Assembly: GCA_016432525.1 (NCBI GenBank)
Contig: CP066693.1
Location: forward strand, 352,815-416,814
Direction: 5' to 3'
DNA length: 64,000 bases
Origin: Candidatus Woesebacteria bacterium
Lineage (GTDB): Bacteria; Patescibacteriota; Microgenomatia; UBA8517
The position numbers and the translations under genes were made by a program. This document shows positions 9,321 through 40,306 of the stretch, piece by piece; positions within the stretch are counted from its first letter, which is position 1; each line of letters begins with the position of its first letter. The notes under the pieces are model-generated. The model searched no databases. It saw only the letters and a list, made by a program, of their open reading frames with translations, and had not been told where the DNA came from.

Positions 9321-9520
9321 AGATCAATATGATTCTAAAGAGCAGGGCTTTTCTATTTCTAAAATGGTTGTTGTGCAACTCTTAGAGGAAGTTAATCTTA
9401 TTTTTTATCAATACCCTCCAAATAACTACATAGTTGCTTCAAGGTTCGAATCCAAACTTACGGGTTAACACGGGCTAGAACGGATTAGTGCCATTCCGTC
9501 AATGGCTATAGGATATTTAG

Positions 9521-11310: not shown

Positions 11311-12413
11311 AAAACTTTGTAGATTTTATCCAATTTTCTTATAAAAATTTTGTAAGAAAAATCTTTTTTGCTTTCGATTCAGAAGCCATTCACGAATTCA
11401 TGCTCGATAATGGCGAATTTGTAGGGAAAGTGACACCATTAAAATTTATATTTAATTACAAAGATAAATCCCTAAATCAAGAAATTGCTGGAATAAAATT
11501 CGCCTCTCCAATAGGTTTGTCAGCAGGTTTTGACTACAAGGCAAAGCTTCCAAATGCCTTGCCCTTACTAGGTTTTGGTTTTGGCAGCCTGGGAACAATT
11601 ACAAATAAAGCCTATGAAGGAAATCCATTGCCGCGCTTGGGTCGCTTAGTTAAAACAAAATCTTTAATGGTAAACAAAGGTTTCAAAAACGAAGGAATAG
11701 ATAAAATTCTTAAAAAAGTTAAAAACCAAAAATTCAGCATTCCAATTGGGCTAAGTATCGGAAAAACAAACGAATCAAAAATGAATCAGAAAGAGGGGAT
11801 GGTAGATATCGTATCAGCTTTTAAAAAAGCAGAAAAATCAAAAACCAACTTTAGCTATTACGAACTAAACATAAGCTGCCCCAATCTTCTAGGGGGAGTT
11901 GAATTCTACTCACCCAAAAAACTAAATGATCTTCTAAAAGCAGTAATCGCGCTTAAACTCAAAAAACCTCTTTTTGTCAAAATGCCGATCTCAAAAACAA
12001 ATAAAGAAATTGATGAAATGCTAAAAGTGATCACAAAATTCAAAGTGGGAGCCGTAATTTTTGGAAATTTACAAAAAGACAGATCTGATAAAAGTTTTGT
12101 CAAAAGCGAGCTTGCAAAGTTTCCAATTGGCAATTTTAGTGGAATTCCAACCCAAAAAAGATCAAACGAATTAATTCATTTTGCTTATAAAAAATACGGC
12201 AAAAAAATTAAAATAATCGGCTGCGGGGGAGTATTTAACGCTAATGATGCCTATAAAAAAATAAAACTCGGGGCATCTTTGATTCAACTAATAACAGGCC
12301 TCGTTTTTGAAGGTCCATTTTTGCCAGCAAAAATCAATTTTGATCTTAAAAATTTACTTGAAAAAGATGGCTACAAATCCCTTCAAGATGCAGTCGGAAG
12401 TTTTAATAAATAG
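11307..12413 (+). CDS. pyrD: Dihydroorotate dehydrogenase family protein
   Basis: Active-site motif NISCPN. C-terminal GCGGVFNANDAYKKIKLGASLIQ, a TIM-barrel FMN-binding tail typical of DHODH/DHPD. Confidence 0.6.
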   Translation: MKNFVDFIQFSYKNFVRKIFFAFDSEAIHEFMLDNGEFVGKVTPLKFIFNYKDKSLNQEIAGIKFASPIGLSAGFDYKAKLPNALPLLGFGFGSLGTITNKAYEGNPLPRLGRLVKTKSLMVNKGFKNEGIDKILKKVKNQKFSIPIGLSIGKTNESKMNQKEGMVDIVSAFKKAEKSKTNFSYYELNISCPNLLGGVEFYSPKKLNDLLKAVIALKLKKPLFVKMPISKTNKEIDEMLKVITKFKVGAVIFGNLQKDRSDKSFVKSELAKFPIGNFSGIPTQKRSNELIHFAYKKYGKKIKIIGCGGVFNANDAYKKIKLGASLIQLITGLVFEGPFLPAKINFDLKNLLEKDGYKSLQDAVGSFNK

Positions 12414-25445: not shown

Positions 25446-27506
25446 CTATTTACTTGCTTCAGAAGCGCCGATCATGCCCTGCAAAAGTTCAGGCATGTAC
25501 CAGATCTGCTGATCGGTCGCAACCTCGCCATTCGTGAGAAAAACTTTGCCGCTCTGATAGTTCAGAGGACCAGTGAACAGGTTGACCTTACCATTACCCA
25601 TATCATTAACAAAACCTACCAAAGTGACCTTCTGGTCAGCCGTCAGGGCCGGACCGTAGGCAAAACCCACATTGGACTCATCGGGATCATTGATATTCGA
25701 CCATTTAGGTCCGTTCCAATCCCAGTTAGAGTGCCAAACGCCAGCTCTAAACTCCGCAATAGCCTTAACATAGGCAGGTCCCCAGTTAAAGTACGGTACT
25801 CCCAGGCACGCACCAGCTCCTAGATCACAGGCTCCTTGATAGTCATACGGCACAGCGAAAATTTTCTCGCCCCTGTCGACACGCTGCTTGGTGACAACTA
25901 TCGCTTCAGGTGTGTCGATACCTGACATGACTACATCAGTGCCATTGTCAAAAAAGCCGTTAGCAACTTCAGTCGGGTTCAAGGTGACTCCTGGAATGTT
26001 GAACCAGAAGCCAATCCATTTTACTTCGAACCGAAGAGAGTTGGGATCACCCCCTCTGTACTTTTGAAAACAGTAGCGTACGCCAAGGTAAGCAGCTGAA
26101 GCCAACCGTCGTGTTTCATCGTTGACGAGAGGTCCAAGATAGCCAATTTTATTGGTCTTGGTTGCCAATGCGGCAGCGCATCCACCAACCATCTTCATAT
26201 ATTCCATGCGGCCCATGAAATTCCCGAGATTCTTAGGCACATCGCCTTTCAGGACAGCATCACCAGAAACGTTGATGAACGTGATATCTGGATATTTTTT
26301 TGCAACGACCGTTGTATCAGCCTGGAAAGCATCAGAGGTGGTGATGATCAGTTTAGCTCCTTCTGTCACCATGTCTTGGACCACCTGATCTAGGGTAGTA
26401 TTAGGTCGGTCTGCCGAATTGAGTTTATCCAAGGTGACATTCTTCACGCCAGGAATCTTGCTTTCAGCATAGAGAACTGCACGAAAATGTGCTTCGCTCC
26501 ACCCTTTGTCTTCCTGTGGCCCAACCAAAATAATCCCAACTGTGGTTGTCTTTGAGCTGTCTGAGTATTCCACCCAACGTTTCAAAGTCGCAAGAAAGAC
26601 CTTGGCTGCATTATCAGCGGCAAGTTGGAAAAACGTCCCTATCTCATTTGCTCCTGGCCCTCCGCCTGCTAGATCCGAAAGAGACCTGAAGATGAGAAAT
26701 GGAACCTGGTTAACATAGGCAACATGCGCAACAGCACTGGATTCCATATCCAAGCTATCAGCTTGCCATGTTTTCCATGCCCACTCTCTAAAAGCTGCGT
26801 TGTCAACGAATGTCTGTCCCGCAACTCCATTTCCGCCGACTTTTACAATAGGCTTACTTTGAAGGCACGTTTTCTTCTGTCCACGTTCAACACAATCAGC
26901 CAGTGTAACATCAGCAGTAGCTGCCTTTGCAACAGCAAGCATCTGTGGATCAGTCTGGAACCAGTAAATGCTCTCACTTGTATCTACAGGAACGCGACTG
27001 CTCGTTACTGAAATAGGTTGTGGAAACATGAAATTGAAATTTGGAAGAGTTGCGTCTACGCCCGAGTAATTTCCAGGCGTGTCCTCGCGGGCAAAATGCA
27101 TCTCCTGATACTGCGCCCATTGCGATGGTATAACAACATCACCGATGTTTAAATTCGGATTCACACCTCCTGCGATTCCTGAAAAGAAAATCCGTTCGAT
27201 GTTGAAAAGATCCAGAGCAACTTGCGTTGTCATCGCGGCATTCACCATAGATACACCTGAAAGGTAAGCCACAACAGGCTTCCCATACAGCGTACCTTTA
27301 GTAAACGTTCTACCGTTAACAACAACTGCACATTCTACTCGAACCTCCTTCAACCAGAGAGTAAGCTCCGATCCAAAGGCCGACTCCAGTGCAATGCGTT
27401 GCACTTTGTCGGGTTGGCAAGCTGTTTGGCCTGCTGCCTGTGACGTGGTCACAAGTCCCAACATTACTACAACAACCACAAAAAGTGAAAACCATCTACG
27501 AGCCAT
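25446..27506 (-). CDS. Secreted fusion protein: MTA/SAH-nucleosidase-like (PNP_UDP_1) domain + BMP/PnrA-family nucleoside-binding domain
   Basis: Likely start at ATG 27506 (GGAGG SD; MARRWFSLF signal peptide); the track ORF begins 12 nt upstream. N-terminal domain: FSGIAGG, GDVVIPSQ, LDMESSAVAHVAYVNQVPFLIFRSLSDLAGG (compare MtnN VEMEATAIAHV...RAISD). C-terminal domain: KKYPDITFINVSGD, KIGYLGP, GTDVVMSGIDTP, typical of BMP family ABC substrate-binding lipoproteins. About 50% G+C by eye. Confidence 0.7.
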   Translation of the reverse strand: MARRWFSLFVVVVVMLGLVTTSQAAGQTACQPDKVQRIALESAFGSELTLWLKEVRVECAVVVNGRTFTKGTLYGKPVVAYLSGVSMVNAAMTTQVALDLFNIERIFFSGIAGGVNPNLNIGDVVIPSQWAQYQEMHFAREDTPGNYSGVDATLPNFNFMFPQPISVTSSRVPVDTSESIYWFQTDPQMLAVAKAATADVTLADCVERGQKKTCLQSKPIVKVGGNGVAGQTFVDNAAFREWAWKTWQADSLDMESSAVAHVAYVNQVPFLIFRSLSDLAGGGPGANEIGTFFQLAADNAAKVFLATLKRWVEYSDSSKTTTVGIILVGPQEDKGWSEAHFRAVLYAESKIPGVKNVTLDKLNSADRPNTTLDQVVQDMVTEGAKLIITTSDAFQADTTVVAKKYPDITFINVSGDAVLKGDVPKNLGNFMGRMEYMKMVGGCAAALATKTNKIGYLGPLVNDETRRLASAAYLGVRYCFQKYRGGDPNSLRFEVKWIGFWFNIPGVTLNPTEVANGFFDNGTDVVMSGIDTPEAIVVTKQRVDRGEKIFAVPYDYQGACDLGAGACLGVPYFNWGPAYVKAIAEFRAGVWHSNWDWNGPKWSNINDPDESNVGFAYGPALTADQKVTLVGFVNDMGNGKVNLFTGPLNYQSGKVFLTNGEVATDQQIWYMPELLQGMIGASEASK

Positions 27507-27631
27507 ACAAACCTCCATACTGCCGTTTATCCAACCATTGGATATTTGCTAGACAGCAGTATTTTGGGTATAAAACCTTACGCCCAAAAGACTGCTGTCT
27601 AAAGGTACTTTATTTGTTAAAGAGCACAAAA

Positions 27632-28335: not shown

Positions 28336-28411
28336 GGCCCCATCGTCTAGTGGTCTAGGACGCCAGGTTCTCATCCTGGTAACCTGGGTTCGACTCCCAG
28401 TGGGGTCACCA
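28336..28411 (+). tRNA. tRNA-Glu (anticodon CUC), CCA encoded
   Basis: GGCCCCATCGTCTAGTGGTCTAGGACGCCAGGTTCTCATCCTGGTAACCTGGGTTCGACTCCCAGTGGGGTCACCA. 7-bp acceptor, D-loop AGTGGTCTA, anticodon loop UUCUCAU, T-loop TTCGACT. Confidence 0.8.
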
Positions 28412-30062
28412 ATCGTTCCTTTGAATTTTCAGCTTCACTGTTTAAGTCGAATATAGGTGTTAATTTGGGTGTTCCACTAACTAGTTCGGCATAAGTCGGC
28501 GTTCTCTCAAAAGTTAACTCAAAAAGTTGTTGCTGTCGAAACATGTCAGGCTCGTTTATTAGCAATTCCGAAGGGTGTTCCACTAAATGCCTTGCATATT
28601 TAAGCTTAGTTTTTATATCTTGTTCGCTTTCTTCCTTTTTATCCCTAATTGACCTGGACTCTTGAATCTTATGCTCTAGTTCCTCAATTTTTTCTTCGAC
28701 TTTCGAAATAGCTATTTTATTACTTAAAAACCTCAAGCTGTCAGCAAGTTCGCTTTGTTGAGCTAAAAGTTTAGCCACAGTCTCGCTTGCAACCTCACTT
28801 TCCTTTATAGACCCCGTTCGTTTTTCTTTCCACTTTTCGATAAATACATATTCAAACAACCTTAAAAATGAATCATCCAGTTTAAGATTTATGATGAAGT
28901 CCTCCATCACCTTGTGAACTTCGGACCTCTTTACTCTCCAACTTTCATGACCTCTATCGCAATGATATGCAGGCCGAGGAATTCCGTTCTTTCCAGTCGA
29001 TGCACTTGCCTTAGGAGTCTTATAACACATGGGGCATAAAATCATCTTTTTGTATGGGTAATAAGGGTTATCTTTCAATCTGATCTGTTTCTTTCGATTG
29101 TATTCGATTGAAGCTTCACTGTTTTTAATCTCAAGGTAGACTTTCCCTCTATTTGCCTTATTAAAAGTCTCGATTGAAACCAATCCCTTAAATTTAGCTA
29201 AGACAGGTATATGTTTAGTCCACTTTTCACAGATAACACCTGCATATATTGGTCGAGAAATGTAACTTTGAAACTGTTTTACAGTTAAAGGGACTCCTCC
29301 TATTTTACCTATCGGCTTTTTGGTCTTTGGATCTCGACGGATTCTCATACGAGAAATAAAACCTAGCTGATTTATTCGCTTAACAATTTGTTTGTCATCA
29401 AAAACTCCTTTTTCTCTCAGTTCAAACATTTTAATAATAAAGAAACCTTCTTTGTTATGTTCTTCGAGTACATTTCTTTTGCCATCAGTTTCTGTCTCGA
29501 TTTTTATATTTTGAAAACCATAGGGTGCACTGCGATTCCAGTATCCTCTTCTTGTATATGAGATTTCTTTGCTGATCATTCGGGTCAAAATCGTTCGTAC
29601 TTCCTCTTTTGAGGATTCAGCCTTCCTAAGTTCTTCAGCTTCTGATGGTGAATAAACGCTCCATGAGTACTCCATGCCCAAGTCTTCTAGTGTGTTCCTT
29701 TCTTTTTTGACAGTTTCTTCAATATCTTGAATTTCGATATTGTTTTCTTTTAGTAAATCCTTTAAGCGAGCATAATCTTTCGCCCCTCCACGAGTAAAAC
29801 GAGATATATCCTTAAAAAGCAAAACATCTATGTTGTTCTGGGGGTTGATACAGTAATCTAAAACCTCTTCGAAAAATACTCTTTCTTTTATTCGACCACT
29901 TTCGACTAATGGGAACACTTTTACTCTTTCCCATCCGTTCTTCTCTATGACACGACTACAGTCATCAACCTGACCGTCGACAGAATCTCCATATGTAACT
30001 TGCTTTGTTCCTGAAGCTCTCGCTAAGACTACAGCTCTTTTATGCTCTCTGGGTATGTTCAT
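28371..30062 (-). CDS. Large serine recombinase (serine integrase)
   Basis: N-terminal resolvase fold (AVVLARASGTKQ with catalytic Ser; RFTRGGAKDYARL). Recombinase domain. Zinc-ribbon cysteines CPMCYK...YHCDRGH. C-terminal coiled-coil region. The last 41 nt overlap the tRNA-Glu gene on the opposite strand. Confidence 0.8.
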   Translation of the reverse strand: MNIPREHKRAVVLARASGTKQVTYGDSVDGQVDDCSRVIEKNGWERVKVFPLVESGRIKERVFFEEVLDYCINPQNNIDVLLFKDISRFTRGGAKDYARLKDLLKENNIEIQDIEETVKKERNTLEDLGMEYSWSVYSPSEAEELRKAESSKEEVRTILTRMISKEISYTRRGYWNRSAPYGFQNIKIETETDGKRNVLEEHNKEGFFIIKMFELREKGVFDDKQIVKRINQLGFISRMRIRRDPKTKKPIGKIGGVPLTVKQFQSYISRPIYAGVICEKWTKHIPVLAKFKGLVSIETFNKANRGKVYLEIKNSEASIEYNRKKQIRLKDNPYYPYKKMILCPMCYKTPKASASTGKNGIPRPAYHCDRGHESWRVKRSEVHKVMEDFIINLKLDDSFLRLFEYVFIEKWKEKRTGSIKESEVASETVAKLLAQQSELADSLRFLSNKIAISKVEEKIEELEHKIQESRSIRDKKEESEQDIKTKLKYARHLVEHPSELLINEPDMFRQQQLFELTFERTPTYAELVSGTPKLTPIFDLNSEAENSKERLVTPLGVEPRLPG

Positions 30063-30219
30063 TTTGCTCTTTCATTTTACTCAAAATCTGGGAGTCTTCA
30101 ACTTTTTCGAGCACAAAATCAGCTAGAAAGGATATTTTCTGAATTACTTGTTCGACTTCGGAGTCAGTTAATCCCTTCGATACCTTTCCTAATAATTTTC
30201 TTGCCTGTTTGATTGTCAT
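30040..30219 (-). CDS. Small ORF (59 aa) overlapping the recombinase start, possible accessory/directionality factor (speculative)
   Basis: ATG at 30219; MTIKQARKLLGKVSKGLTDSEVEQVIQKISFLADFVLEKVEDSQILSKMKEQNEHTQRA. Not in the supplied track (under 60 aa). Overlaps the recombinase ATG by 23 nt in another frame. Confidence 0.25.
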   Translation of the reverse strand: MTIKQARKLLGKVSKGLTDSEVEQVIQKISFLADFVLEKVEDSQILSKMKEQNEHTQRA

Positions 30220-30328
30220 GGTGACTCTGTTTTTAGGGCATAAAAAAAGCCCTCAGCCCATTCACATGGACTTAAGGACTACATATGAGTCACCACAAAC
30301 TTTCAGGTTTTACGACGGAAAGTATCGT

Positions 30329-30652
30329 CTATTTAACTGTCCATTCGATCATATCATCTTTTGTGTAAGGTAGCCAGTAATCTCGAGGTGTTTTGTTTAA
30401 CAAGTATTTAGTAAGAAGTTTTAATTTGTTGCCTACAAAAACGAACCTACTTACATGTTCGCATTGTCTGTGTCCACATTTTGCAGATATGAAAATCCCA
30501 TGTTCGCAAGTAATCTGGTCTTTGGAAAATACAAATCCACATTTGGCACAATGAAGATTTTCTGACTGCAAAAACTTGTCTAGCCTAACTTCAATATCTG
30601 AAGTTTCTTCAAATCCATTTATAATGGTAACCATGCTCAAATTATAACTCAA
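30329..30652 (-). CDS. Cys/His-rich zinc-ribbon protein (107 aa), hypothetical
   Basis: HCAKCG...CEHG...KCGHRQCEH arrangement of Cys/His pairs. Confidence 0.45.
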   Translation of the reverse strand: MSYNLSMVTIINGFEETSDIEVRLDKFLQSENLHCAKCGFVFSKDQITCEHGIFISAKCGHRQCEHVSRFVFVGNKLKLLTKYLLNKTPRDYWLPYTKDDMIEWTVK

Positions 30653-30663
30653 GAAGATCTTCC

Positions 30664-31554
30664 TTAAGGCAAGCTTTCACAGGCAATCCCATTTCCGACA
30701 CCTTTTGCGCTGTCAAGCCGCATGGGATCATTTGTTGCGCTGAATCCACAACATTGAAAGAAGCTTTGTGCTTCTGCATGAGTTGAGAAGTCGGAGCAAT
30801 CTTTGTCGGGACCTGAACAAGAGTATTTACAGCTTCTGCCACCGTTTGTCGGAGCTGTCGGAGTCGATTGAGTAGTTTGCGATCGACATGCACTCCAAAG
30901 ACCTTTATTGGCGCTTCTAGCAGCGTTTTGGGCCTCGAGAAATTGATTTTGATACTTCACATCGGGAGGGTAAGTATAAGAATTGGCGTAGCCTTCACGA
31001 ACTAAAGAATCATTTACGAAAGTGTCTCCGACATATACATAGCGGGGCAATCGACCATACCGATCTGTCTCCGACACATCTTTTTCGAATCTTACCCCTT
31101 TGCCTTCGACCAATTGCCGATTTCGAGCTGTAGCCTCGCTTGCAAAGCATTCATTTTGAGTGAGCTCGGGAGTATCAATTCCGATATACCGCACACGCCT
31201 TCCATCGGAAAGCTCAATTGTGTCTCCGTCTATTACTCTTGAAACAGTAAAGACTTCCTGTTTGTCGGAACCTCCGACGCCGATGTTTTCTCCGACAGTT
31301 GTTGTCGGAGTTTGTGTCGGCAAAATCTCCGACTTAATGTCGGAAGTCGGAGGAGTATTATTGTCGGCAACTTTTGTCGGGAGGGTTGCTCCAAATCCAA
31401 AAAAAGATAAAACAAGCAAACCAATAAATCCAATTGTTAATTGTTTTCGGCTCAGATGTCTCTTCAATAGCCTTGAAAACAAACTTGGTTTAGCAATTCC
31501 CATAAGCAAGCCAATTGGAGAAAGCAAAAAAAGTGTTAGAAATAGGCCGTTCAT
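30664..31554 (-). CDS. Membrane-anchored thermonuclease (SNase-like) with C-terminal Excalibur Ca-binding domain
   Basis: SNase motifs VIDGDTIEL, RYIGIDTPE, RYGRLPRYVYV. C-terminal DPMRLDSAKGVGNGIACE (Excalibur DxDxDGxxCE-like). N-terminal TM helices. Start uncertain: ATG 31554 (MNGLF...), 31503, or track start 31623. Confidence 0.7.
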   Translation of the reverse strand: MNGLFLTLFLLSPIGLLMGIAKPSLFSRLLKRHLSRKQLTIGFIGLLVLSFFGFGATLPTKVADNNTPPTSDIKSEILPTQTPTTTVGENIGVGGSDKQEVFTVSRVIDGDTIELSDGRRVRYIGIDTPELTQNECFASEATARNRQLVEGKGVRFEKDVSETDRYGRLPRYVYVGDTFVNDSLVREGYANSYTYPPDVKYQNQFLEAQNAARSANKGLWSACRSQTTQSTPTAPTNGGRSCKYSCSGPDKDCSDFSTHAEAQSFFQCCGFSATNDPMRLDSAKGVGNGIACESLP

Positions 31555-31631
31555 ACTAGGCTGAATTATACCAGAAATGATGACAAGGAGTCGGAGGTAA
31601 AAGAGACAGGGAGTCACTACCATAAAAAGTA

Positions 31632-31859
31632 ATGGGAAAACCTATTACTCATAAACATATATTAGAAAAATTTGGCCGAAAGGTCCAACAAACTCGCAAG
31701 AGCAAAGGAGTTACCCAAGACGCATTGGCAGCTAGTATTTCTATGGACCGAACATATATTGGATTGATAGAACGAGGAGAAAGGAATCCGACAATAAGGA
31801 CACTTTATAAGATCTCTAAATCATTAAAGGTAGAGGCGAAGGAGTTACTTCCCTTTTAA
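31632..31859 (+). CDS. XRE-family helix-turn-helix transcriptional regulator (Cro/CI-like)
   Basis: KGVTQDALAASISMDRTYIGLIERGERNPTIRTLYKISKSL is a classic HTH_3. Confidence 0.75.
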   Translation: MGKPITHKHILEKFGRKVQQTRKSKGVTQDALAASISMDRTYIGLIERGERNPTIRTLYKISKSLKVEAKELLPF

Positions 31860-32302
31860 GCTTCGTTTGGAACTATATAATTTATCTGCGGAACTTCATT
31901 GATTCCCCCAAAATCTTTATGTTTTGTTTGTGCAACTTCGGTTCGAGTTACAAAGAACGGCTGAGAGGAACGATGCTTTGTTGCTACCAGTGTGATTATT
32001 CTTACCTCTTCCTTTGAGAGAACATAGTTTGGATTTTGAATCAATTTTGCGTGAGTATTGGCTATCACTTTATATGCAATATTATTAGCAAGCTCTCCTA
32101 CAAGTCCTTGAAAGTAGTCTATTTTGTCCGAAAACCAATCTTTTTGAGCATACTTTTCGTACATAGATGTTCGATGTCCATTTAACCCTGCCCTCTCTAT
32201 CGCACTATTTAAGCTATAACCCTGCATTAAAAAAGGCCTCATCTCATCAAGCCACCTTTGGTATTCTTCATCTGTAACTTTAGGGCGGCCCATATAAGAC
32301 AT
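31856..32302 (-). CDS. Phage-like HTH protein (terminase small-subunit-like N-terminus), hypothetical
   Basis: MSYMGRPKVTDEEYQRWLDEMRPFLMQGYSLNSAIERAGL resembles the MGRPxK...HTH N-termini of phage small terminase/DNA-binding proteins. Only 14 nt separate its ATG from the divergent downstream gene. Confidence 0.35.
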   Translation of the reverse strand: MSYMGRPKVTDEEYQRWLDEMRPFLMQGYSLNSAIERAGLNGHRTSMYEKYAQKDWFSDKIDYFQGLVGELANNIAYKVIANTHAKLIQNPNYVLSKEEVRIITLVATKHRSSQPFFVTRTEVAQTKHKDFGGINEVPQINYIVPNEA

Positions 32303-32316
32303 ATCGTAAGTTTACG

Positions 32317-33381
32317 ATGTGGTATCATCTAGCGGAAATGGCAAACTTGCAAGATTATCAACTATTTTATGCTCTCGCCAACGGAAGGGCTATAGATACC
32401 GCTACTTTAATTGAAGAGTATGAACAAATTAAGCCACTTGAAGGGGATGCCTTCTTTGAAAAATATGGTTTAGGAAACATTAACGGTATAACTCTTTATC
32501 CTTATGAAAGGTTAAAAGGATACGAGATAGTTTTAGATGTTCTGGAAAGCCATAATCCTACTCATTTTAGAGAAATACATAAAGGTACACCATATTACTT
32601 CATGGCTTGGCTGTCGATTCAAATGGAAGATTATGAGAAGGGAGTCTTTTACATTGATACTTCAATAAGCGAAGATTTGAGATTGCTTGGTTCTGCCTGG
32701 GACATTAACGCTTCTGAGCCTACGCCAGGAATTAAATTTACTTTGCTTATTGATGCAAACATTCAAGTGGCTTCAGACGCCGCAATTAAACTTGAGACAT
32801 TGGTTAGCCAAGAGTTAATGGCTTTTAGTAGTGCTGCACAGGTGAGTTTAAGCAAGGATCTCTTTATCCAAAAATTTATTAAAGATTCTGGGCTCTTTAG
32901 AAATGGTACTTTCAGGACGATCGTCACAAGCTTGTATAGTTATATTTTGGAGTTTCAGTCAAGACGAACACAGTTAAAAATAAGAAGCTCAGAAGAAGGC
33001 TCTATCGAACCATTTTTGACTCATTTATTCAAAGGATGTGTCATCCTTGAGTCCTTGCTCAAGCTAAAAGCTCCTGGAGATACTGCTCAAACATTGGATC
33101 CTGCTATCAGAGCTCATAACGCCACTTTAGGAATTGACTTAGACACTTTTCCGAGAAAAACATCTTTTGAACAAGTAATAAACAATATGGTCAACTTGAA
33201 GGCACAAAACGCTGATTATAAGAATGTTTGTTTTGCCACAGCTTATGGGATGAGAAACACAACTGGGCATCAGCTTGCTTGGCCAGATGTATTTAGAACA
33301 GCACCTGAAACATATGAACAAGCATACGAATCAATACTCGGGGCAATTTTTTGGTCAATTTACAAACTTTGGGTAGAGTAA
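32317..33381 (+). CDS. HEPN-like (Rx4H motif) Abi-type protein, hypothetical (354 aa)
   Basis: C-terminal YGMRNTTGHQLAW carries an R-x4-H HEPN signature. No other motif recognised. Confidence 0.45.
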   Translation: MWYHLAEMANLQDYQLFYALANGRAIDTATLIEEYEQIKPLEGDAFFEKYGLGNINGITLYPYERLKGYEIVLDVLESHNPTHFREIHKGTPYYFMAWLSIQMEDYEKGVFYIDTSISEDLRLLGSAWDINASEPTPGIKFTLLIDANIQVASDAAIKLETLVSQELMAFSSAAQVSLSKDLFIQKFIKDSGLFRNGTFRTIVTSLYSYILEFQSRRTQLKIRSSEEGSIEPFLTHLFKGCVILESLLKLKAPGDTAQTLDPAIRAHNATLGIDLDTFPRKTSFEQVINNMVNLKAQNADYKNVCFATAYGMRNTTGHQLAWPDVFRTAPETYEQAYESILGAIFWSIYKLWVE

Positions 33382-33471
33382 AATTTTACATATGTTCAAG
33401 AACATTTTTCCTTCAATCGAAACAGCCTTAGAGATGGAACCAGAAGAACTTGCCCCTTTTGTACTGCGACA

Positions 33472-34092
33472 TTGCAAAAGTTAGAACGCATAAATAGGTA
33501 CAACTACACTTTAAGTTCAGGTTCGGACATTAGAGATTATGCAGGAGATCATTTAAGTGAATTTCAAAAGAGATTAACGGAAGCATTTATTTGGCTTGAA
33601 AGAGAAATGTTTATTGCTCCTAAGCCAGATGAGACAGGAGAATGGCGATATATCACGAGAAGAGGAGAGAGAGTATTACAAAGTGAAGACTTTGCCTCAT
33701 ATGCGAAGGAGTCTCTCTTGCAATCTGACCAATTACATCCTGTTTTAGTTAGAAAAGTAAAACAGCTCTTTTTGCGAGGTGATTACGATACTGCAATTTT
33801 TCAGGCCTTTAAGGCAGTCGAAGTAGCAGTTAGGAAGGCGGGAAAATACGAGAAAAGTGATATTGGAGTTCCTCTGATGAGAAAGGCTTTTAACCCCAAT
33901 ACAGGTACTCTTACAAATAGCCACTCTGAGTCTTCGGAGAAAGAAGCAATGAGTAATCTATTCGCAGGGGCAATAGGATTATTCAAAAACCCTGCGAGCC
34001 ATAGAGATATTGAAGGGATAACTCCCGAAGAAGCGAGTGATTATATCAGGGTTGCTAACTGTTTAATAAAAATGGTCGATTCTGAGAAGTAA
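33472..34092 (+). CDS. TIGR02391/Abi_C-like (HEPN-related) protein
   Basis: NLFAGAIGLFKNPASHRD corresponds to the conserved F.G....RNP.AH block of the TIGR02391/Abi_C family, here with K in place of R. TTG start. Confidence 0.5.
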   Translation: MQKLERINRYNYTLSSGSDIRDYAGDHLSEFQKRLTEAFIWLEREMFIAPKPDETGEWRYITRRGERVLQSEDFASYAKESLLQSDQLHPVLVRKVKQLFLRGDYDTAIFQAFKAVEVAVRKAGKYEKSDIGVPLMRKAFNPNTGTLTNSHSESSEKEAMSNLFAGAIGLFKNPASHRDIEGITPEEASDYIRVANCLIKMVDSEK

Positions 34093-34207
34093 CAATTGAG
34101 CGCTTTTAACAGTCACAGGATTAAAATCGCGTGCAATTTCTTCTAAAATGTCTGAGCCAGTGTTATAATTCGCACTACTATCTCGTTATTACGAAAAGGA
34201 GGTTGAA

Positions 34208-34583
34208 AATGTCTCTATTTGTATGTCCTGTTTGTCCATGGAGAGGCAGAGATCATAAGTACCGTCATGCTAAAGCTGGCGAGACAACTATCAGATTCGA
34301 CGATGGCCATATTTGGACTTTTCCGAATTTGATCTTACATTACATTCATGACCATAAATGGCTACCGCCAGAAAATTTTGTGAAAGATGTAATGGAAGGA
34401 CACCTCTCTTTCTCGCCTTTTGGCAATCAAGAGGTGGTTCCTCAGAGAGTTGGATACCTAGCTGAAAGTGACTTTGTACAAGGAGAGATACCAAAGGGTC
34501 TTGTCGACAGACTTCAGAATCTGATTGAACAAGTAAGCCAACACGACGATGATCTCAGGTATTACGGTCCAGGCGAAAAATAA
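34208..34583 (+). CDS. Zinc-ribbon protein (hypothetical)
   Basis: Strong SD AAAGGAGG then ATG. MSLFVCPVCPWRGRDHKYRH...HYIHDHKW Cys/His cluster. Confidence 0.5.
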
Positions 34584-34590
34584 TTCATAT

Positions 34591-34628
34591 AAACCCGATG
34601 CAATTTCTCGTTCATCGGGTTTTTCTTT
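34591..34628 (+). terminator. Rho-independent terminator
   Basis: AAACCCGATG...CATCGGGTTT is a 9-10-bp stem followed by TTTTCTTT. Confidence 0.6.
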
Positions 34629-34653
34629 AAGAAATGCTAAAATATACTCTGTT

Positions 34654-35622
34654 ATGAAAGTATATTTCTCACCAAAATATTACAAAGGTGTCACTCATTT
34701 GGATAGCACAGGCAAGAAAGAATACATGATAGATTCTATTGCCAAGCCATTGTGGGTTTCGGAAAAGGCACAAGAAATTGAAGGAATCGATCTTGTTGAA
34801 CCCAGTCAGATTTCGCGCGAAGATATACTCTCCGTTCATACAGAAGATTATGTAAAATCGATAGAAACCTCAGTACCCATCGATCTAGCTTCCTCATCGG
34901 GACTTAGGTGGGTACCTTCCTTATATGAAGCGACTCTCTATTCAGTAAGTGGCTTGTATAGAGCTATTCAGACGGCCCGAAAAGAATATGTTTCAGGCAC
35001 TTTGTCCACAAATTTTCATCATGCAAAAAAGGGAAAGGGATCTGGTTTCTGCGTCTTCAATGGAGTGGCGATTTCAGTTCTCAAGGCATTAAGAGAATTA
35101 GATTTTGAGAGAATTTTGATAGTAGATTGCGATTTCCATTACGGGGATGGGAGCGCTGAAACACTGAAACAAACGATTGGCGCTTATATATATGACATTT
35201 ATGGAGGGTTTCATCAGGCAAATAACGAAGTCACAGAAGCGAAAAATATTACTAATGAGAAAGTATCTTCAGTCGAAGAATATGATTTAGCGCTTGAGAG
35301 AATGTTTACCTTCTCAAATAATTACAAGCCAGATTTAGTTATTTATGATGCGGGAATGGATTTTTATGAAGGCGATCGAATTGGTGGGATTAGAGGTATA
35401 GATAAAGATTTCTTATATAGAAGGGATTCGTTGATATTTAACTTCTTTCTAAAAAATAATATCCCAGTCGCTTTTATGTTAGGCGGAGGCTATGTGCCTT
35501 ATAAAGATGAAGATGGAAATATGCTATCTGAAGAAGAAATTAACAAAAAAAGAGAAGAATTAACAGAATTGTACTTAAATACCCTAAAAATTGCTTCTCA
35601 GACCGTAGATTTAACAGTGTAG
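34654..35622 (+). CDS. Histone-deacetylase/AcuC/acetylpolyamine-amidohydrolase family protein
   Basis: HDAC signatures HHAKKGKGSGFCVFNGVAI and IVDCDFHYGDG, and a C-terminal GGGY motif. ATG at 34654 (MKVYFSPKYY). Confidence 0.7.
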   Translation: MKVYFSPKYYKGVTHLDSTGKKEYMIDSIAKPLWVSEKAQEIEGIDLVEPSQISREDILSVHTEDYVKSIETSVPIDLASSSGLRWVPSLYEATLYSVSGLYRAIQTARKEYVSGTLSTNFHHAKKGKGSGFCVFNGVAISVLKALRELDFERILIVDCDFHYGDGSAETLKQTIGAYIYDIYGGFHQANNEVTEAKNITNEKVSSVEEYDLALERMFTFSNNYKPDLVIYDAGMDFYEGDRIGGIRGIDKDFLYRRDSLIFNFFLKNNIPVAFMLGGGYVPYKDEDGNMLSEEEINKKREELTELYLNTLKIASQTVDLTV

Positions 35623-35648
35623 TGCCCACGGTCTGAGAAAGTTATATT

Positions 35649-36902
35649 CTAGCTTGCTTTTACAAGCATTGCTTTGCGCAAGATCGTATTGGCCAGATAG
35701 AAACGATGTTCAATTCTCGGCGCATTACGCTTCAATAGCCTTTTCCTTACAACAAGTGCTTCATCAACCATGCTTAGATTCATTAACCCAGACATCTTGA
35801 GCTCAGTTGAGAGCATTTGACTAGGTGTTAAGGAATCTACCTTTATAGAGGCTATCAAGGCTTCTATTGCAGTGTCGACATCATACACAAGCACTTCTTC
35901 GGTTGTTATCTCTCCTGTTTCGGATACATTGTGCTTATTTCGGCAAGGAATTGCTAAGCATACGATGTTAGAGTAGCCTGCAAAAATCGAAATTGCGGTT
36001 GCATCAGATGTTCCTGAACTTACAGTATATTGAAACTTTCGTTCAGTTGCGTTTAATGCGTTCAGCATGATAGCTTCTGCCCGATTGATTTCAGATCCAG
36101 ATAACTGCCCAAACACAACACTTGTGTCATTAACTTTGAGTAGGACTCCGTCCGTATAAGTCGGGTCAACCAAGTTAAGTTGACTAAAAGTGAGATTTGG
36201 CATCATCTCCATTGCTTCAAGTACCACAAAGATAGTTTGATTATCAAAATCAAGATCAATCTCGGGGATACCTTTTTGAGCCATCTGCCTCATCATAGAA
36301 AGCTGATAGACTTCTTCAACAGAATTTAGGATCAAAGTCACATCGATTTCAGCTTGATTAGCTACAAGTCGTTCTAAAGCTTGTAGAGCAACAATTGTCG
36401 GAATGTGGTTATCCGCACTTCGCATTGATATTGCTTCTTGCGTAATTCTCGTTTCAATATCCCATATACCGACACTTTCGCTTGGCAAAGAATCAAAGTT
36501 TACCAACTGCAAATTTGATCCTTTAACCTCGCAACTAGATGCTTGGATCAATTCTCCTACGGGAGAATAGACTTGAACAGGATGTTGACCTTGTTTAATG
36601 TGGCTAATTCCTCGTACGCCGACTCCTCCTAGACTGCCGACGGGGTGTCCTTGTCCATTTTTGTCAAAGACTATTGCAGGGTGATCTAGATGGCTTACCC
36701 ATACAAATTTTGTATCCGCCTTTGAATGTCTAACTCGCAGGTATACCCCATAGGGATCCGAATGGATTTTGACTAAGTAGCTTTTTCCGATACTTAACCC
36801 AAGCTGTCTTAGCAGATTCAATACGGCACTTTCAATGCTGATTGTATGGAAAGGCGAGTTTGGAATTGCATCGAGCAATTGAACTAGTTCTGTAATGTGC
36901 AT
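35649..36902 (-). CDS. Zn-dependent peptidase/deacylase-like protein (M20/M28/M42-like), tentative
   Basis: VWVSHLDHPAIVFDK (HxD metal motif) and later acidic/His residues. Fold assignment uncertain. Confidence 0.3.
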   Translation of the reverse strand: MHITELVQLLDAIPNSPFHTISIESAVLNLLRQLGLSIGKSYLVKIHSDPYGVYLRVRHSKADTKFVWVSHLDHPAIVFDKNGQGHPVGSLGGVGVRGISHIKQGQHPVQVYSPVGELIQASSCEVKGSNLQLVNFDSLPSESVGIWDIETRITQEAISMRSADNHIPTIVALQALERLVANQAEIDVTLILNSVEEVYQLSMMRQMAQKGIPEIDLDFDNQTIFVVLEAMEMMPNLTFSQLNLVDPTYTDGVLLKVNDTSVVFGQLSGSEINRAEAIMLNALNATERKFQYTVSSGTSDATAISIFAGYSNIVCLAIPCRNKHNVSETGEITTEEVLVYDVDTAIEALIASIKVDSLTPSQMLSTELKMSGLMNLSMVDEALVVRKRLLKRNAPRIEHRFYLANTILRKAMLVKAS

Positions 36903-36976
36903 GCTCTTGCCCTTTCTTTGACTTCCGTCTATAAAATGGTAGAATTCAAAAGCCTATAATTTTAGCACATTGGAGG

Positions 36977-37746
36977 TTGAAAATGAATCTCGGTCTTGTT
37001 TCGACCCGCTGGGACGACGAGGTGATGCAAATCTTAAGAGCTGAATTCTACGGAAAATACACAGAAGAAGAGTTTCTTGAAATGATGAGGAAAGATATGG
37101 AAAACGACTCGCAGTCGTTGATCAACTCCTCTGAAATTCAAAGAGCTACCGATGTATTTTTCGTTCGGGAAGAAGAAATTGTGGTTGCCATCCTGATGCT
37201 CAAGTATTACAAATGGGCATTACTAGGTCCGCAACTCTTCTTTGAGGTGCTGTCCGACAGTCAAATAACAACGGCAATTGCATTAAAGCCGTTCAATCAG
37301 CTTGTGGTTTCTGATGGGCTACATGCTGGCGAACTGGCATATTTTTGGGTAAATCCAACAAGAGAGGTGAGGGTATAGGTAGAAATCTGTTTGAATATAC
37401 AGCAGATGAGTTTAGGCGTTTGCTCCAAGCAAATGATCTAGCTTTTACTCTATCTCTCGGCAACAAATCTCATTTGCACGCAGGACGAGATCTCAAAACC
37501 CTCCTACTTGGCCACGAAAGGCAAGTAAACGGCGTCGACGAGCAAACGGGTAAAATACGAGTCATGAGTACTCCGCTAGCGTTATCTATTGTGGAGAACC
37601 AACTTGGTTTTCCTACAAGCGAGATTTCGTCTAGTCAAGGGTCTATCGCAACTGAAGTGTTAGCTAAGAAATTTGGCATGACCTTTCGAGGATATTCTCG
37701 TAATCTTAGCTTATTGTTTGCAACGACCATCGGTAATCTTTCGTAG
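36977..37746 (+). pseudogene. GNAT-family N-acetyltransferase interrupted by a frameshift
   Basis: Frame 1 ends ...ELAYFWVNPTREVRV* at 37378. Frame 3 continues from 37345 with KRGEGIGRNLFEY. Together these rebuild the GNAT motif A (V.P..RG.GIG), so the shift lies near 37357-37360. Confidence 0.55.
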
Positions 37747-37752
37747 ACGAAA

Positions 37753-37805
37753 GGCAGTAAAGATCATCTGGTTTTTACTGCCAATTTTATTTTTGCTACC
37801 GTTTT
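37753..37805 (+). terminator. Rho-independent terminator after the GNAT gene
   Basis: GGCAGTA...TACTGCC stem followed by AATTTTATTTTTG. Confidence 0.5.
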
Positions 37806-37957
37806 TATTTACCATGTTCTAGTACTTATGTGGTATATCTACTATGCGTAAATAGGCTCAAGATCAGGTTGAATATTGAAGTTCTCAAAAACTTCAAAAA
37901 CTCGATTGAGATAGTTATCAAAGGTGTTCCATTCCTGGTATAATAGGTTCACTACTA

Positions 37958-39412: not shown

Positions 39413-40306
39413 TTATAGAAGTACTGGTCCACAAAATATCTGCGGAAGCCTAAGCCTAAAGAATCCAAAGTCAAAAGTTACAAAAGTTGTTTTGCATTGG
39501 AATGTAAATCTCGGGAAAGGTGGAAAGCTTGGAAATGGAAATCCAGATGGCTTTGGTGTCTGTGTAGGGGTGGCTGTTGGGCTAGCAGAAGGTGTCGCAG
39601 TGGGAGTCGCTGTAGGCGTTGAGGTAGGAGTAGCTGTTGGTGTTGCAGTAGGAGAAGCAGAAGCTGTTGGACTAGCAGAAGGTGAAGGTGTCGAAACAAT
39701 AATTGATGAATTTCTTGGAGTAGATGTAGTCAATAATTCAAAATCTGTTGAATTATCCTCTGTATCTTGTCCATGCCCGCCTGTATCATCAATTTTTCTC
39801 TGAATACTACCACCAGCAATTGGAGAAGGAGCATCACTTGCTTCTTTATCAGTTGCTGTGCCCATCCCAACTTTATCTATCAGTGTTGTGCCTGCGTCAC
39901 TATACAAAAGTACCGAATTGTTATCGGCAATAGTTCCACTGTTGGTTGATGAATAAACTTCATCTGTTATCACAGAGCCTGTATATCCAGTTGGGTGTGT
40001 CACCAAAAAATATCCATGGGAAGCAATAGTCCCACTCATACTCGCAACTAAATTTGAAGAACTAGAAGCACTTTCGCTTTCTCTTTTAAGTCTCCACCCC
40101 GACAAATCAACAGCACTATTAGTAGGATTATAAAGCTCTACAAATTCATCGTTTGCAGTGACTCCAGCAACTTGCACTTGTGATATAACAACATGACTAG
40201 CAGCAGCGCGAACAGAAGATTCAGCCTTAAAAATGAGTGCACCAAACACAAATAATCCTAAAAGCCAGGGCAAGTTAGCTTTCTTAAACATATAGCTATA
40301 ATTCAT
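39413..40306 (-). CDS. Lamin-tail-domain (LTD) secreted protein with Pro/Thr/Ala tandem-repeat tail
   Basis: Signal peptide. LTD core DEFVELYNPTNSAVDLSGWRL. C-terminal (A/S)PT(A)TPT repeats. Confidence 0.65.
   Translation of the reverse strand: MNYSYMFKKANLPWLLGLFVFGALIFKAESSVRAAASHVVISQVQVAGVTANDEFVELYNPTNSAVDLSGWRLKRESESASSSSNLVASMSGTIASHGYFLVTHPTGYTGSVITDEVYSSTNSGTIADNNSVLLYSDAGTTLIDKVGMGTATDKEASDAPSPIAGGSIQRKIDDTGGHGQDTEDNSTDFELLTTSTPRNSSIIVSTPSPSASPTASASPTATPTATPTSTPTATPTATPSASPTATPTQTPKPSGFPFPSFPPFPRFTFQCKTTFVTFDFGFFRLRLPQIFCGPVLL
39555..39675. repeat. Short tandem repeat (6/12-nt periodicity) encoding the PT-rich linker
   Basis: Repeated ggtgtcgcagtgggagtcgctgtaggcgttgaggtaggagtagctgttggtgttgcagtagga-type units, inside the LTD gene. 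Confidence 0.55.

Follow-up and report, generated by a model that had tools for sequence, protein, structure and literature searches.

The window analyzed here is a 64,000-nt stretch of a Candidatus Woesebacteria genome (candidate phyla radiation, CPR; assembly GCA_016432525.1, contig CP066693.1, positions 352,815 to 416,814). Within it, an integrative element of 9,543 bp adjoins the host gene for tRNA-Glu(CTC), at the 3′ tip. With a probability that we put at about 0.88, the element was inserted at this tip by its own large serine recombinase (LSR), using an element attachment site (attP) located in the open reading frame (ORF) of the integrase. This attP is situated inside the 3′ end of the ORF, and integration splits the gene. 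An initial annotation, made from the sequence alone, had proposed an integrative element at tRNA-Glu driven by an LSR. That proposal is supported by the PF00239 match, the catalytic residues, the fold match and the defined junctions presented below.

Borders and attachment sites

The left attachment site (attL, whole site roughly 28385-28435) reads ...CAGTGGGG-TCAC-CAATCG..., the right one (attR) reads ...ATAGGT-TCAC-TACTATC..., and TCAC is all that they have in common. From the TCAC copies at 28406-28409 and 37949-37952, an element length of 9,543 bp was obtained. On the left, the tRNA-Glu gene is of host origin as far as about 28405 (the B arm), and its terminal (T)CACCA, including the encoded CCA, is derived from the element; on the right, host B′ DNA starts from about 37953, next to the attR core (37949-37952). 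The reconstructed host site (attB), GGGGTCAC followed directly by TACTATC, lacks the CCA, as at the tRNA-Glu of two relatives (loci L003 and L004; loci are given by L numbers throughout). The predicted attB junction is ...GGGTTCGACTCCCAGTGGGGTCACTACTATCAATAAATAAACCC..., and the predicted attP is ...AACGATTGGTGAACCTATTATACCAGGAATGGAACAC..., with the junction ...AATTCAAAGGAACGATTGGTGAACCTATTATACCAGGAATGGAACACC.... The P arm of attR is unique: GTGA-N17-TGGAACAC had one match in the 64-kb window (37924-37952, minus strand), with 0.10 expected by chance.

The initial annotation had suggested searching for a core shared by the two ends, and TCAC was found at both. The borders it gave were displaced. 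The left edge is at 28406-28409, not at 28336 or 28371, and the attR core is about 145 bp beyond the right border that had been set near 37800, so the interval that it gave omits the attR feature. It had also noticed no duplicate of the tRNA 3′ end at the right border, which agrees with our results: neither repeat finding nor Smith-Waterman local alignment gave matches better than those of shuffled sequence. It was right, too, that this absence is not decisive for a serine integrase, because the tiny shared core (TCAC) explains it. A weak candidate repeat (28367-28391 vs. 37926-37950, 18/25 matching) was at chance level and is better read as a mimic of the T-loop in the P arm, at attP-type spacing. 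Pairs of TTCGAA/TTTGAA half-sites at fixed spacing were rejected as a means of finding attachment sites, the pattern being too degenerate in AT-rich DNA. The elevated G+C content noted earlier was found (39.1% in the element vs. 36.4% in the rest of the window), but other 9.5-kb windows span 32.0-41.7%, and composition is therefore no marker of the element.

The flanking host genes encode Lon, a phosphoribosyltransferase (PRTase), DedA/VTT and GreA, and the closest genomes are Candidatus Woesebacteria metagenome-assembled genomes. In L003 and L004 the PRTase is 69% identical to that of the window, and the gene order Lon...PRTase-tRNA-Glu...GreA is kept. Neither locus has a recombinase or any of the cargo, and 2-3 kb of unrelated housekeeping genes follow the tRNA; the block in the window is therefore an insertion and not conserved synteny, which answers a check that the initial annotation had proposed. 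In L003 and L004, tRNA-Glu ends in ...GTCAC without an encoded CCA, and A/T-rich DNA comes next; in the window, the gene ends in GTCACCA.

The integrase and its split reading frame

The 563-aa product of the integrase ORF is a large serine recombinase and shows every feature of one that could be assessed here. R15, S17 and Q21 are invariant in an alignment with 28 homologues (29 sequences), as are C343, C346 and Y366 of the zinc-ribbon motif C343-x2-C346...Y366-H367, H367 being nearly so; both the catalytic serine and the zinc-ribbon motif, for which the initial annotation had asked, are thus present on alignment. The homologues carry PF07508 and PF13408. At the sequence level, matches to the PDB were limited to the catalytic domain (2.6e-10 for that of TP901-1), and fold comparison was therefore required for the rest of the protein. 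In the AlphaFold (AF2) model (pLDDT, the predicted confidence, 84.6), a long helix E is seen besides the catalytic and recombinase domains, and the zinc-ribbon region is rich in beta structure and carries a long coiled coil (helices 397-443 and 449-495). Foldseek matched the model over its full length to the SPbeta, PhiC31 and Bxb1 integrases (E 4e-17 to 3e-13). The invariant catalytic and zinc-binding residues, together with the full-length fold match, therefore identify the enzyme as an LSR.

The ORF coordinates given by the initial annotation hold, as does the antisense overlap of its last 41 nt (28371-28411) with the 3′ half of tRNA-Glu, where the TGA stop overlaps the anticodon. The overlap is no tRNA half borne by the element; it is mostly host B-arm DNA in a fortuitous ORF extension. 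Residues 1-552 are native; the last 11 (TPLGVEPRLPG) and the stop are read from antisense tRNA (28371-28406). The pLDDT below 50 of modelled residues 543-563 is consistent with a meaningless appended peptide.

The native 3′ end of the gene was found at the opposite end of the element. It consists of 36 codons at 37845-37952 when the shared Val is counted, in frame with the ...NSKERLV of the main ORF; the native tail thus has 35 residues, replaced by 11 from antisense tRNA. A hidden Markov model (HMM) built from 19 tails of other loci, the window excluded, gave this segment a score of 39.3 bits (E 5.7e-11), against E 0.55 for the runner-up in the window. The reconstructed full-length integrase has 587 aa, and full-length relatives have about 590-625 aa. 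Conservation of the tail reaches about 10 codons past the 29-nt P-arm motif, and we infer that the tail functions as protein.

Upstream of the integrase, tblastn located homologues of the overlapping 59-aa ORF (30040-30219) in four loci (Table 1), and small ORFs are also called at this position in L008, L009, L012 and L013. PHROGs gave a weak match to a family of unknown function. This ORF is the sole candidate and may encode a directionality factor or a regulator.

The pattern among relatives

The integrase has 324 homologues, mostly in CPR/Patescibacteria, and nearly all of them end in ...LVxPxG(F/I/V)EP..., which is the translated antisense of the acceptor stem and T-arm. We fetched 91 related loci from assemblies and metagenomes (the metagenome scan used an 11-sequence alignment). 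The 3′ end of the LSR gene overlaps an antisense tRNA in 64 of the 91, involving nine isotypes (33 Glu, 8 Arg, 8 Lys, 5 Gln, 3 Asp, 3 Trp, 2 Gly, 1 Val and 1 Ile); most of the remaining loci are interrupted by contig ends. From locus to locus, the integrase stop codon falls at different points of the tRNA (4 to 134 nt), and the overlap is therefore read-through rather than a tail with a function. The integrase genes of L042, at tRNA-Lys(TTT), and of L049/L050, at tRNA-Glu(CTC), are 95.4% identical, and the precise point at which this identity stops is TGGTGA, which is the discriminator and CCA in antisense. This breakpoint places the crossover at the tRNA 3′ tip, with the T-arm in the host half-site, and the pair indicates that more than one tRNA isotype is used by near-identical enzymes.

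Nine loci have no tRNA, and their ORF runs past ...LV into a conserved tail of 30-40 residues with the consensus V-x5-(E/S)WN(T/P)(I/L)-x6-W-x3-F. Two contigs have the signature of circular molecules: L027 (5,018 bp, exact terminal overlap of 43 nt) and L028 (5,286 bp, exact overlap of 127 nt). Besides a full-length integrase, each encodes an XRE regulator and a few small ORFs; no replication gene could be recognised. The two contigs resemble minimal elements of the family in circular form. With the tail HMM, orphan tails were located upstream of the integrase, on the same strand and 2.8-10 kb away, in at least 15 tRNA-integrated loci.

Every site in an orphan or full-length tail reads GTG(A/C)-N17-TGGAAC. 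GAAC lies 22 nt from the core in 24/24 P arms, whereas in tRNA the T-loop GAAC lies 17 nt from the discriminator. As a caveat, the script chose the nearest core, although chance alone would place a core at that exact position only about 9% of the time. A motif of the zinc-ribbon domain (ZD) located 5 bp further out in attP than in attB is a hallmark of serine integrases (PMC3783163), and the spacings of 22 nt and 17 nt match this published shift.

Some loci depart from the common arrangement. L012 was considered as a free attP form and was rejected, given an orphan tail 8.8 kb upstream of its integrase. The L012 element (tail at 605, integrase end at 9455) is nested in a second element that bears type IV secretion system (T4SS) and HsdM genes, at a non-tRNA site; this target carries TTTGAAC at attP-type spacing. 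In L033, a fossil 35-nt tRNA 3′ fragment (acceptor plus T-arm, about 11655-11695) is located at the integrase 3′ end, before an intact tRNA-Glu, and appears to be an older tRNA-derived read-through absorbed into the integrase gene. In many loci (L019, L024, L034, L044 and L057 among them) the contig stops within about 100 nt past the integrase/tRNA junction, a pattern suggesting that the assembly broke there because integrated and empty populations were mixed or because of repeated tRNA sequences.

Gene content of the element

The features of the element are shown in Table 1.

Table 1. Coordinates of the target tRNA, the attachment sites and the genes of the element in the window
Feature	Position	Strand	Evidence or remark
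tRNA-Glu(CTC), integration target	28336-28411	+	ARAGORN and Rfam, 60.8 bits
attL core TCAC	28406-28409	.	Only sequence common to attL and attR; discriminator end of tRNA-Glu(CTC)
Large serine integrase (LSR), integrated form, 563 aa	28371-30062	-	PF00239 3.4e-11; phrog_95 integrase 4e-26
Conserved 59-aa ORF overlapping integrase start	30040-30219	-	tblastn homologues directly upstream of LSR in L017, L018, L021, L036
Cys/His-rich small protein, putative Zn-ribbon	30329-30652	-	Zn_ribbon_3 sub-threshold, E 0.16; gene called in independent assemblies
Membrane-anchored staphylococcal-nuclease-family (SNase) protein	30664-31623	-	PF00565 2.5e-21; C3a212 (SNc+LTD) 3e-28; phrog_20876 nuclease
XRE/Cro-type helix-turn-helix (HTH) regulator, divergent from nuclease gene	31632-31859	+	HTH_3 1.5e-13
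148-aa protein	31856-32302	-	40% identity to LSR-adjacent ORF in L006; no family match
354-aa all-helical protein, putative HEPN-like domain (RNTTGH)	32317-33381	+	
Hypoth_Ymh/TIGR02391 (HEPN-superfamily) protein	33472-34092	+	PF09509 1.6e-26; TIGR02391 9.6e-22
DUF7919 Cys-rich protein, 124 aa	34209-34583 (start could be 34131)	+	PF25535 1.5e-16
HDAC-family deacetylase	34549-35622	+	PF00850 8e-39; 47%-identical orthologue in L007 element
M42-like metallohydrolase	35649-36902	-	PF05343 5.7e-6; 37%-identical orthologue in L007 element
GNAT acetyltransferase pseudogene, frameshift near 37345-37378	36977-37746	+	Two ORFs match one L007 ORF
Displaced integrase 3′ end, 36 codons (VNLLYQEWNTFDNYLNRVFEVFENFNIQPDLEPIYA) plus stop	37842-37952	-	Tail HMM; in-frame join
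attR P arm GTGAACCTATTATACCAGGAATGGAACAC	37924-37952	-	Core 37949-37952; unique pattern match, attP-type spacing

Part of the cargo is shared with L007, another Woesebacteria genome, in which an integrase of 40% identity occupies the same tRNA-Glu. There, the HDAC/M42/GNAT trio is located between that element's own orphan tail and integrase, inverted with respect to the window, and the three genes are therefore true cargo. The L007 GNAT orthologue is intact (256 aa, Acetyltransf_1 2.3e-7), and the split of the GNAT gene in the window is identical in two independent assemblies. The cargo otherwise differs among elements, the only recurrent genes being the XRE regulator (homologues in 10 related loci) and the small ORF just upstream of the integrase. 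A Ymh homologue was found inside another LSR element (L024). The family of the 354-aa protein has 59 homologues with invariant HKGxPY and RNxxxH motifs and is unannotated. Two of them (L097 and L098) are solitary genes among housekeeping genes in CPR chromosomes; a conserved two-gene system of the 354-aa protein and Ymh was rejected, the pairing being absent in these two contexts.

The cargo list of the initial annotation was largely reproduced (SNase, XRE, two HEPN-type proteins, one of them putative, DUF7919, HDAC, M42-like hydrolase and frameshifted GNAT), except that Pfam detected no Excalibur domain in the SNase protein and that the 148-aa protein, which had been labelled a phage-like HTH protein, has no family match. 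Nor was the 148-aa protein supported as a homologue of GP3_package (small terminase). PADLOC (PADLOC-DB 2.0) found no complete defence system. Its matches were weak or concerned single proteins: the SNase matched the candidate C3a212, the XRE regulator matched control proteins, and Ymh matched PD-Lambda-3_B (1.3e-5). No capsid, packaging or relaxase/T4SS genes were found in 28407-37952 with Pfam, PHROGs and NCBIfam; PHROGs matched only the integrase, the nuclease and, weakly, the 59-aa ORF. The cargo has no recognisable replication or transfer genes.

Host DNA outside the element includes a lamin-tail-domain (LTD) protein gene (39413-40306, minus strand). The PADLOC candidate C3a212 has SNase and LTD in one protein; here the LTD gene is 8 kb from the SNase gene of the element. 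Just to the left of the PRTase gene, a 690-aa ORF (25446-27518, minus strand) encodes a fusion of a PNP_UDP_1 phosphorylase domain with a Bmp/PnrA-like binding domain and is a compositional outlier (G+C 47.8% vs. about 35% in its flanks).

Discussion

Insertion at the tRNA 3′ tip, with attP in the integrase ORF, can be described as follows. Recombination occurs within TCAC (tRNA sense), which spans the last acceptor bases, the discriminator and the next base. It leaves the body of the tRNA (the B arm with the T-arm) host-derived, the last few bases and the encoded CCA being supplied by the element. The integrase loses its 35-residue tail and then reads into the antisense tRNA until the stop in the anticodon loop, and the displaced tail and the P arm come to lie at the opposite end of the element. 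By analogy with known LSR structures, the ZD would read the universal T-loop sequence (antisense TCGAAC) in attB and, in attP, a mimic of it located 5 bp further out (TGGAAC, the Trp-Asn codons in the tail); T-loop reading by this domain would account for the occurrence of near-identical integrases at different tRNAs. The swap of the C-terminus on integration may, more speculatively, lock or bias the direction of recombination.

Several observations weigh against this account. The crossover dinucleotide is placed to within the four bases of TCAC, and the roles of the T-loop and the ZD are proposed by analogy. No empty attB or excised circle of the window's own element was found, both independent assemblies carry it in the integrated state, and an exact search of viral contigs for its attP junction gave no match. 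No recombination directionality factor (RDF) was identified for the integrase. The frameshift in the GNAT gene is a sign of some decay, so present-day mobility of the copy in the window is unproven. Finally, loci with attP in the ORF are not free circles in every case: the integrase gene of L078 (9932-11749) is full-length, with attP in its ORF, in a 77.8-kb chromosome-like contig. This contig also encodes TonB-receptor-like, FecR and ECF-sigma proteins, and the integrase family is therefore not confined to CPR bacteria.

A different position of the crossover, in or near the anticodon loop, would mean that the element brings the whole 41-nt tRNA 3′ half and has its right border near 37800. This is very improbable. 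It would account for the overlap of the integrase stop with the anticodon, for an ORF overlap that is exactly the tRNA 3′ half and for the weak 18/25 match of 28367-28391 to 37926-37950, but that 25-nt match is at chance level and the ORF stops of other loci are scattered over 4 to 134 nt inside their tRNAs. Near-identical integrase genes at tRNA-Lys and tRNA-Glu diverge right past TGGTGA, and the displaced tail starts at 37952; these data argue for a crossover at the 3′ tip. We consider it less likely than not that the element inserted at the tip is now a fixed, immobile remnant with recognisable junctions and a tail-less integrase unable to excise. The frameshifted GNAT gene, the occurrence of the element in each of the two assemblies and of neither a circle nor an empty site, the lack of a recognised RDF and the absence of the native tail from the integrated ORF are what a remnant would show. 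However, visible damage is found in one cargo gene only, the ORFs of the integrase and of the 36-codon tail are intact and fit the family consensus, as does the intact 29-nt P arm, and circular full-length relatives exist.

We consider it improbable that the element is a prophage or a phage satellite with an anti-phage defence island. PHROGs found no capsid, portal, terminase or tail protein, and no PADLOC system is complete. The idea draws on the two HEPN-type proteins, the nuclease and the XRE regulator in the cargo, on a GP3_package (small-terminase-like) gene in some related elements and on the presence of one relative in IMG/VR; against it, the 148-aa protein is not GP3_package, and the homologues of the 354-aa protein are solitary chromosomal genes. 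The abortive-infection or toxin-type defence and satellite functions proposed in the initial annotation are thus hypotheses, possible and unproven, since no complete PADLOC system, no phage structural or packaging gene and only solitary homologues of the 354-aa protein were found.

Beyond the window, we propose only tentatively that an undescribed and widespread clade of LSRs uses the universal T-arm/acceptor end of tRNA as attB, one enzyme serving several tRNAs, that attP in this clade is located in the ORF of the enzyme, and that the C-terminal swap is a built-in switch. If so, the full-length enzyme, made only from the circle, would integrate, and the tail-less fusion made from the integrated copy would be locked or would need a partner to excise. 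The splitting of the ORF offers a directly testable hypothesis for directionality control without, or besides, a separate factor. A clade that reads a feature of every tRNA, with attachment sites definable from sequence, would offer compact enzymes whose target is conserved across all life. Mobile elements are poorly charted in CPR/Patescibacteria genomes, and our results give a rule for delimiting them: one border is marked by an integrase that ends in ...LVxPxG(F/I/V)EP, and the opposite border by an orphan ...EWNTL... tail. Where these integrases are annotated with "Gly-Phe/Ile/Val-Glu-Pro" ends, the ends are read-through of antisense tRNA.

Comparison with known systems

Serine integrases are the main tools for the insertion of large DNA and are usually described as targeting unique sites, mostly in protein-coding genes. 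Like the LSRs of PhiC31, Bxb1, A118/LI, SPbeta and TP901-1, the integrase of the window has an N-terminal resolvase domain with the invariant serine, a recombinase domain, a zinc-ribbon domain with a long coiled coil and the full-length fold; the attL/attR core is very short, and the outer motif is shifted by 5 bp between attP-type and attB-type half-sites. It differs from them in that the targets are tRNA 3′ tips, of several isotypes for near-identical enzymes, in that attP is in the integrase ORF, so integration swaps the C-terminus, and in that sequence similarity to solved LSRs is limited to the catalytic domain. The integrase gene beside a tRNA that is kept functional after insertion resembles the tRNA islands and prophages of tyrosine integrases, but there is no direct repeat of the tRNA 3′ end, only a few terminal tRNA bases are replaced and no tyrosine integrase was found among the ORFs.

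The archaeal SSV1-type fuselloviruses have tyrosine recombinases as integrases, and these are partitioned when the virus integrates into a tRNA gene; the identity segment is about 44 bp, and the split takes a large part of the gene. As in these viruses, attP is in the int ORF, and integration into the tRNA leaves a large and a small part of the gene at opposite ends. In contrast, the enzyme here is a bacterial serine recombinase with a 4-bp core, and only the last 35 residues are displaced. The arrangement in the window thus works like that of SSV1-type partitioned integrases, and the enzyme is not a member of that tyrosine-recombinase family. In the largest survey of LSR attachment sites, tRNA is unmentioned in the main text (PMC10083194), and our literature search, with many subscription papers outside its reach, found no description of serine integrases that target tRNA tips or have a split ORF, or of serine recombinases of CPR bacteria. 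We describe the arrangement as a new variant of serine-integrase integration, documented over dozens of loci with precise and testable attachment sites.

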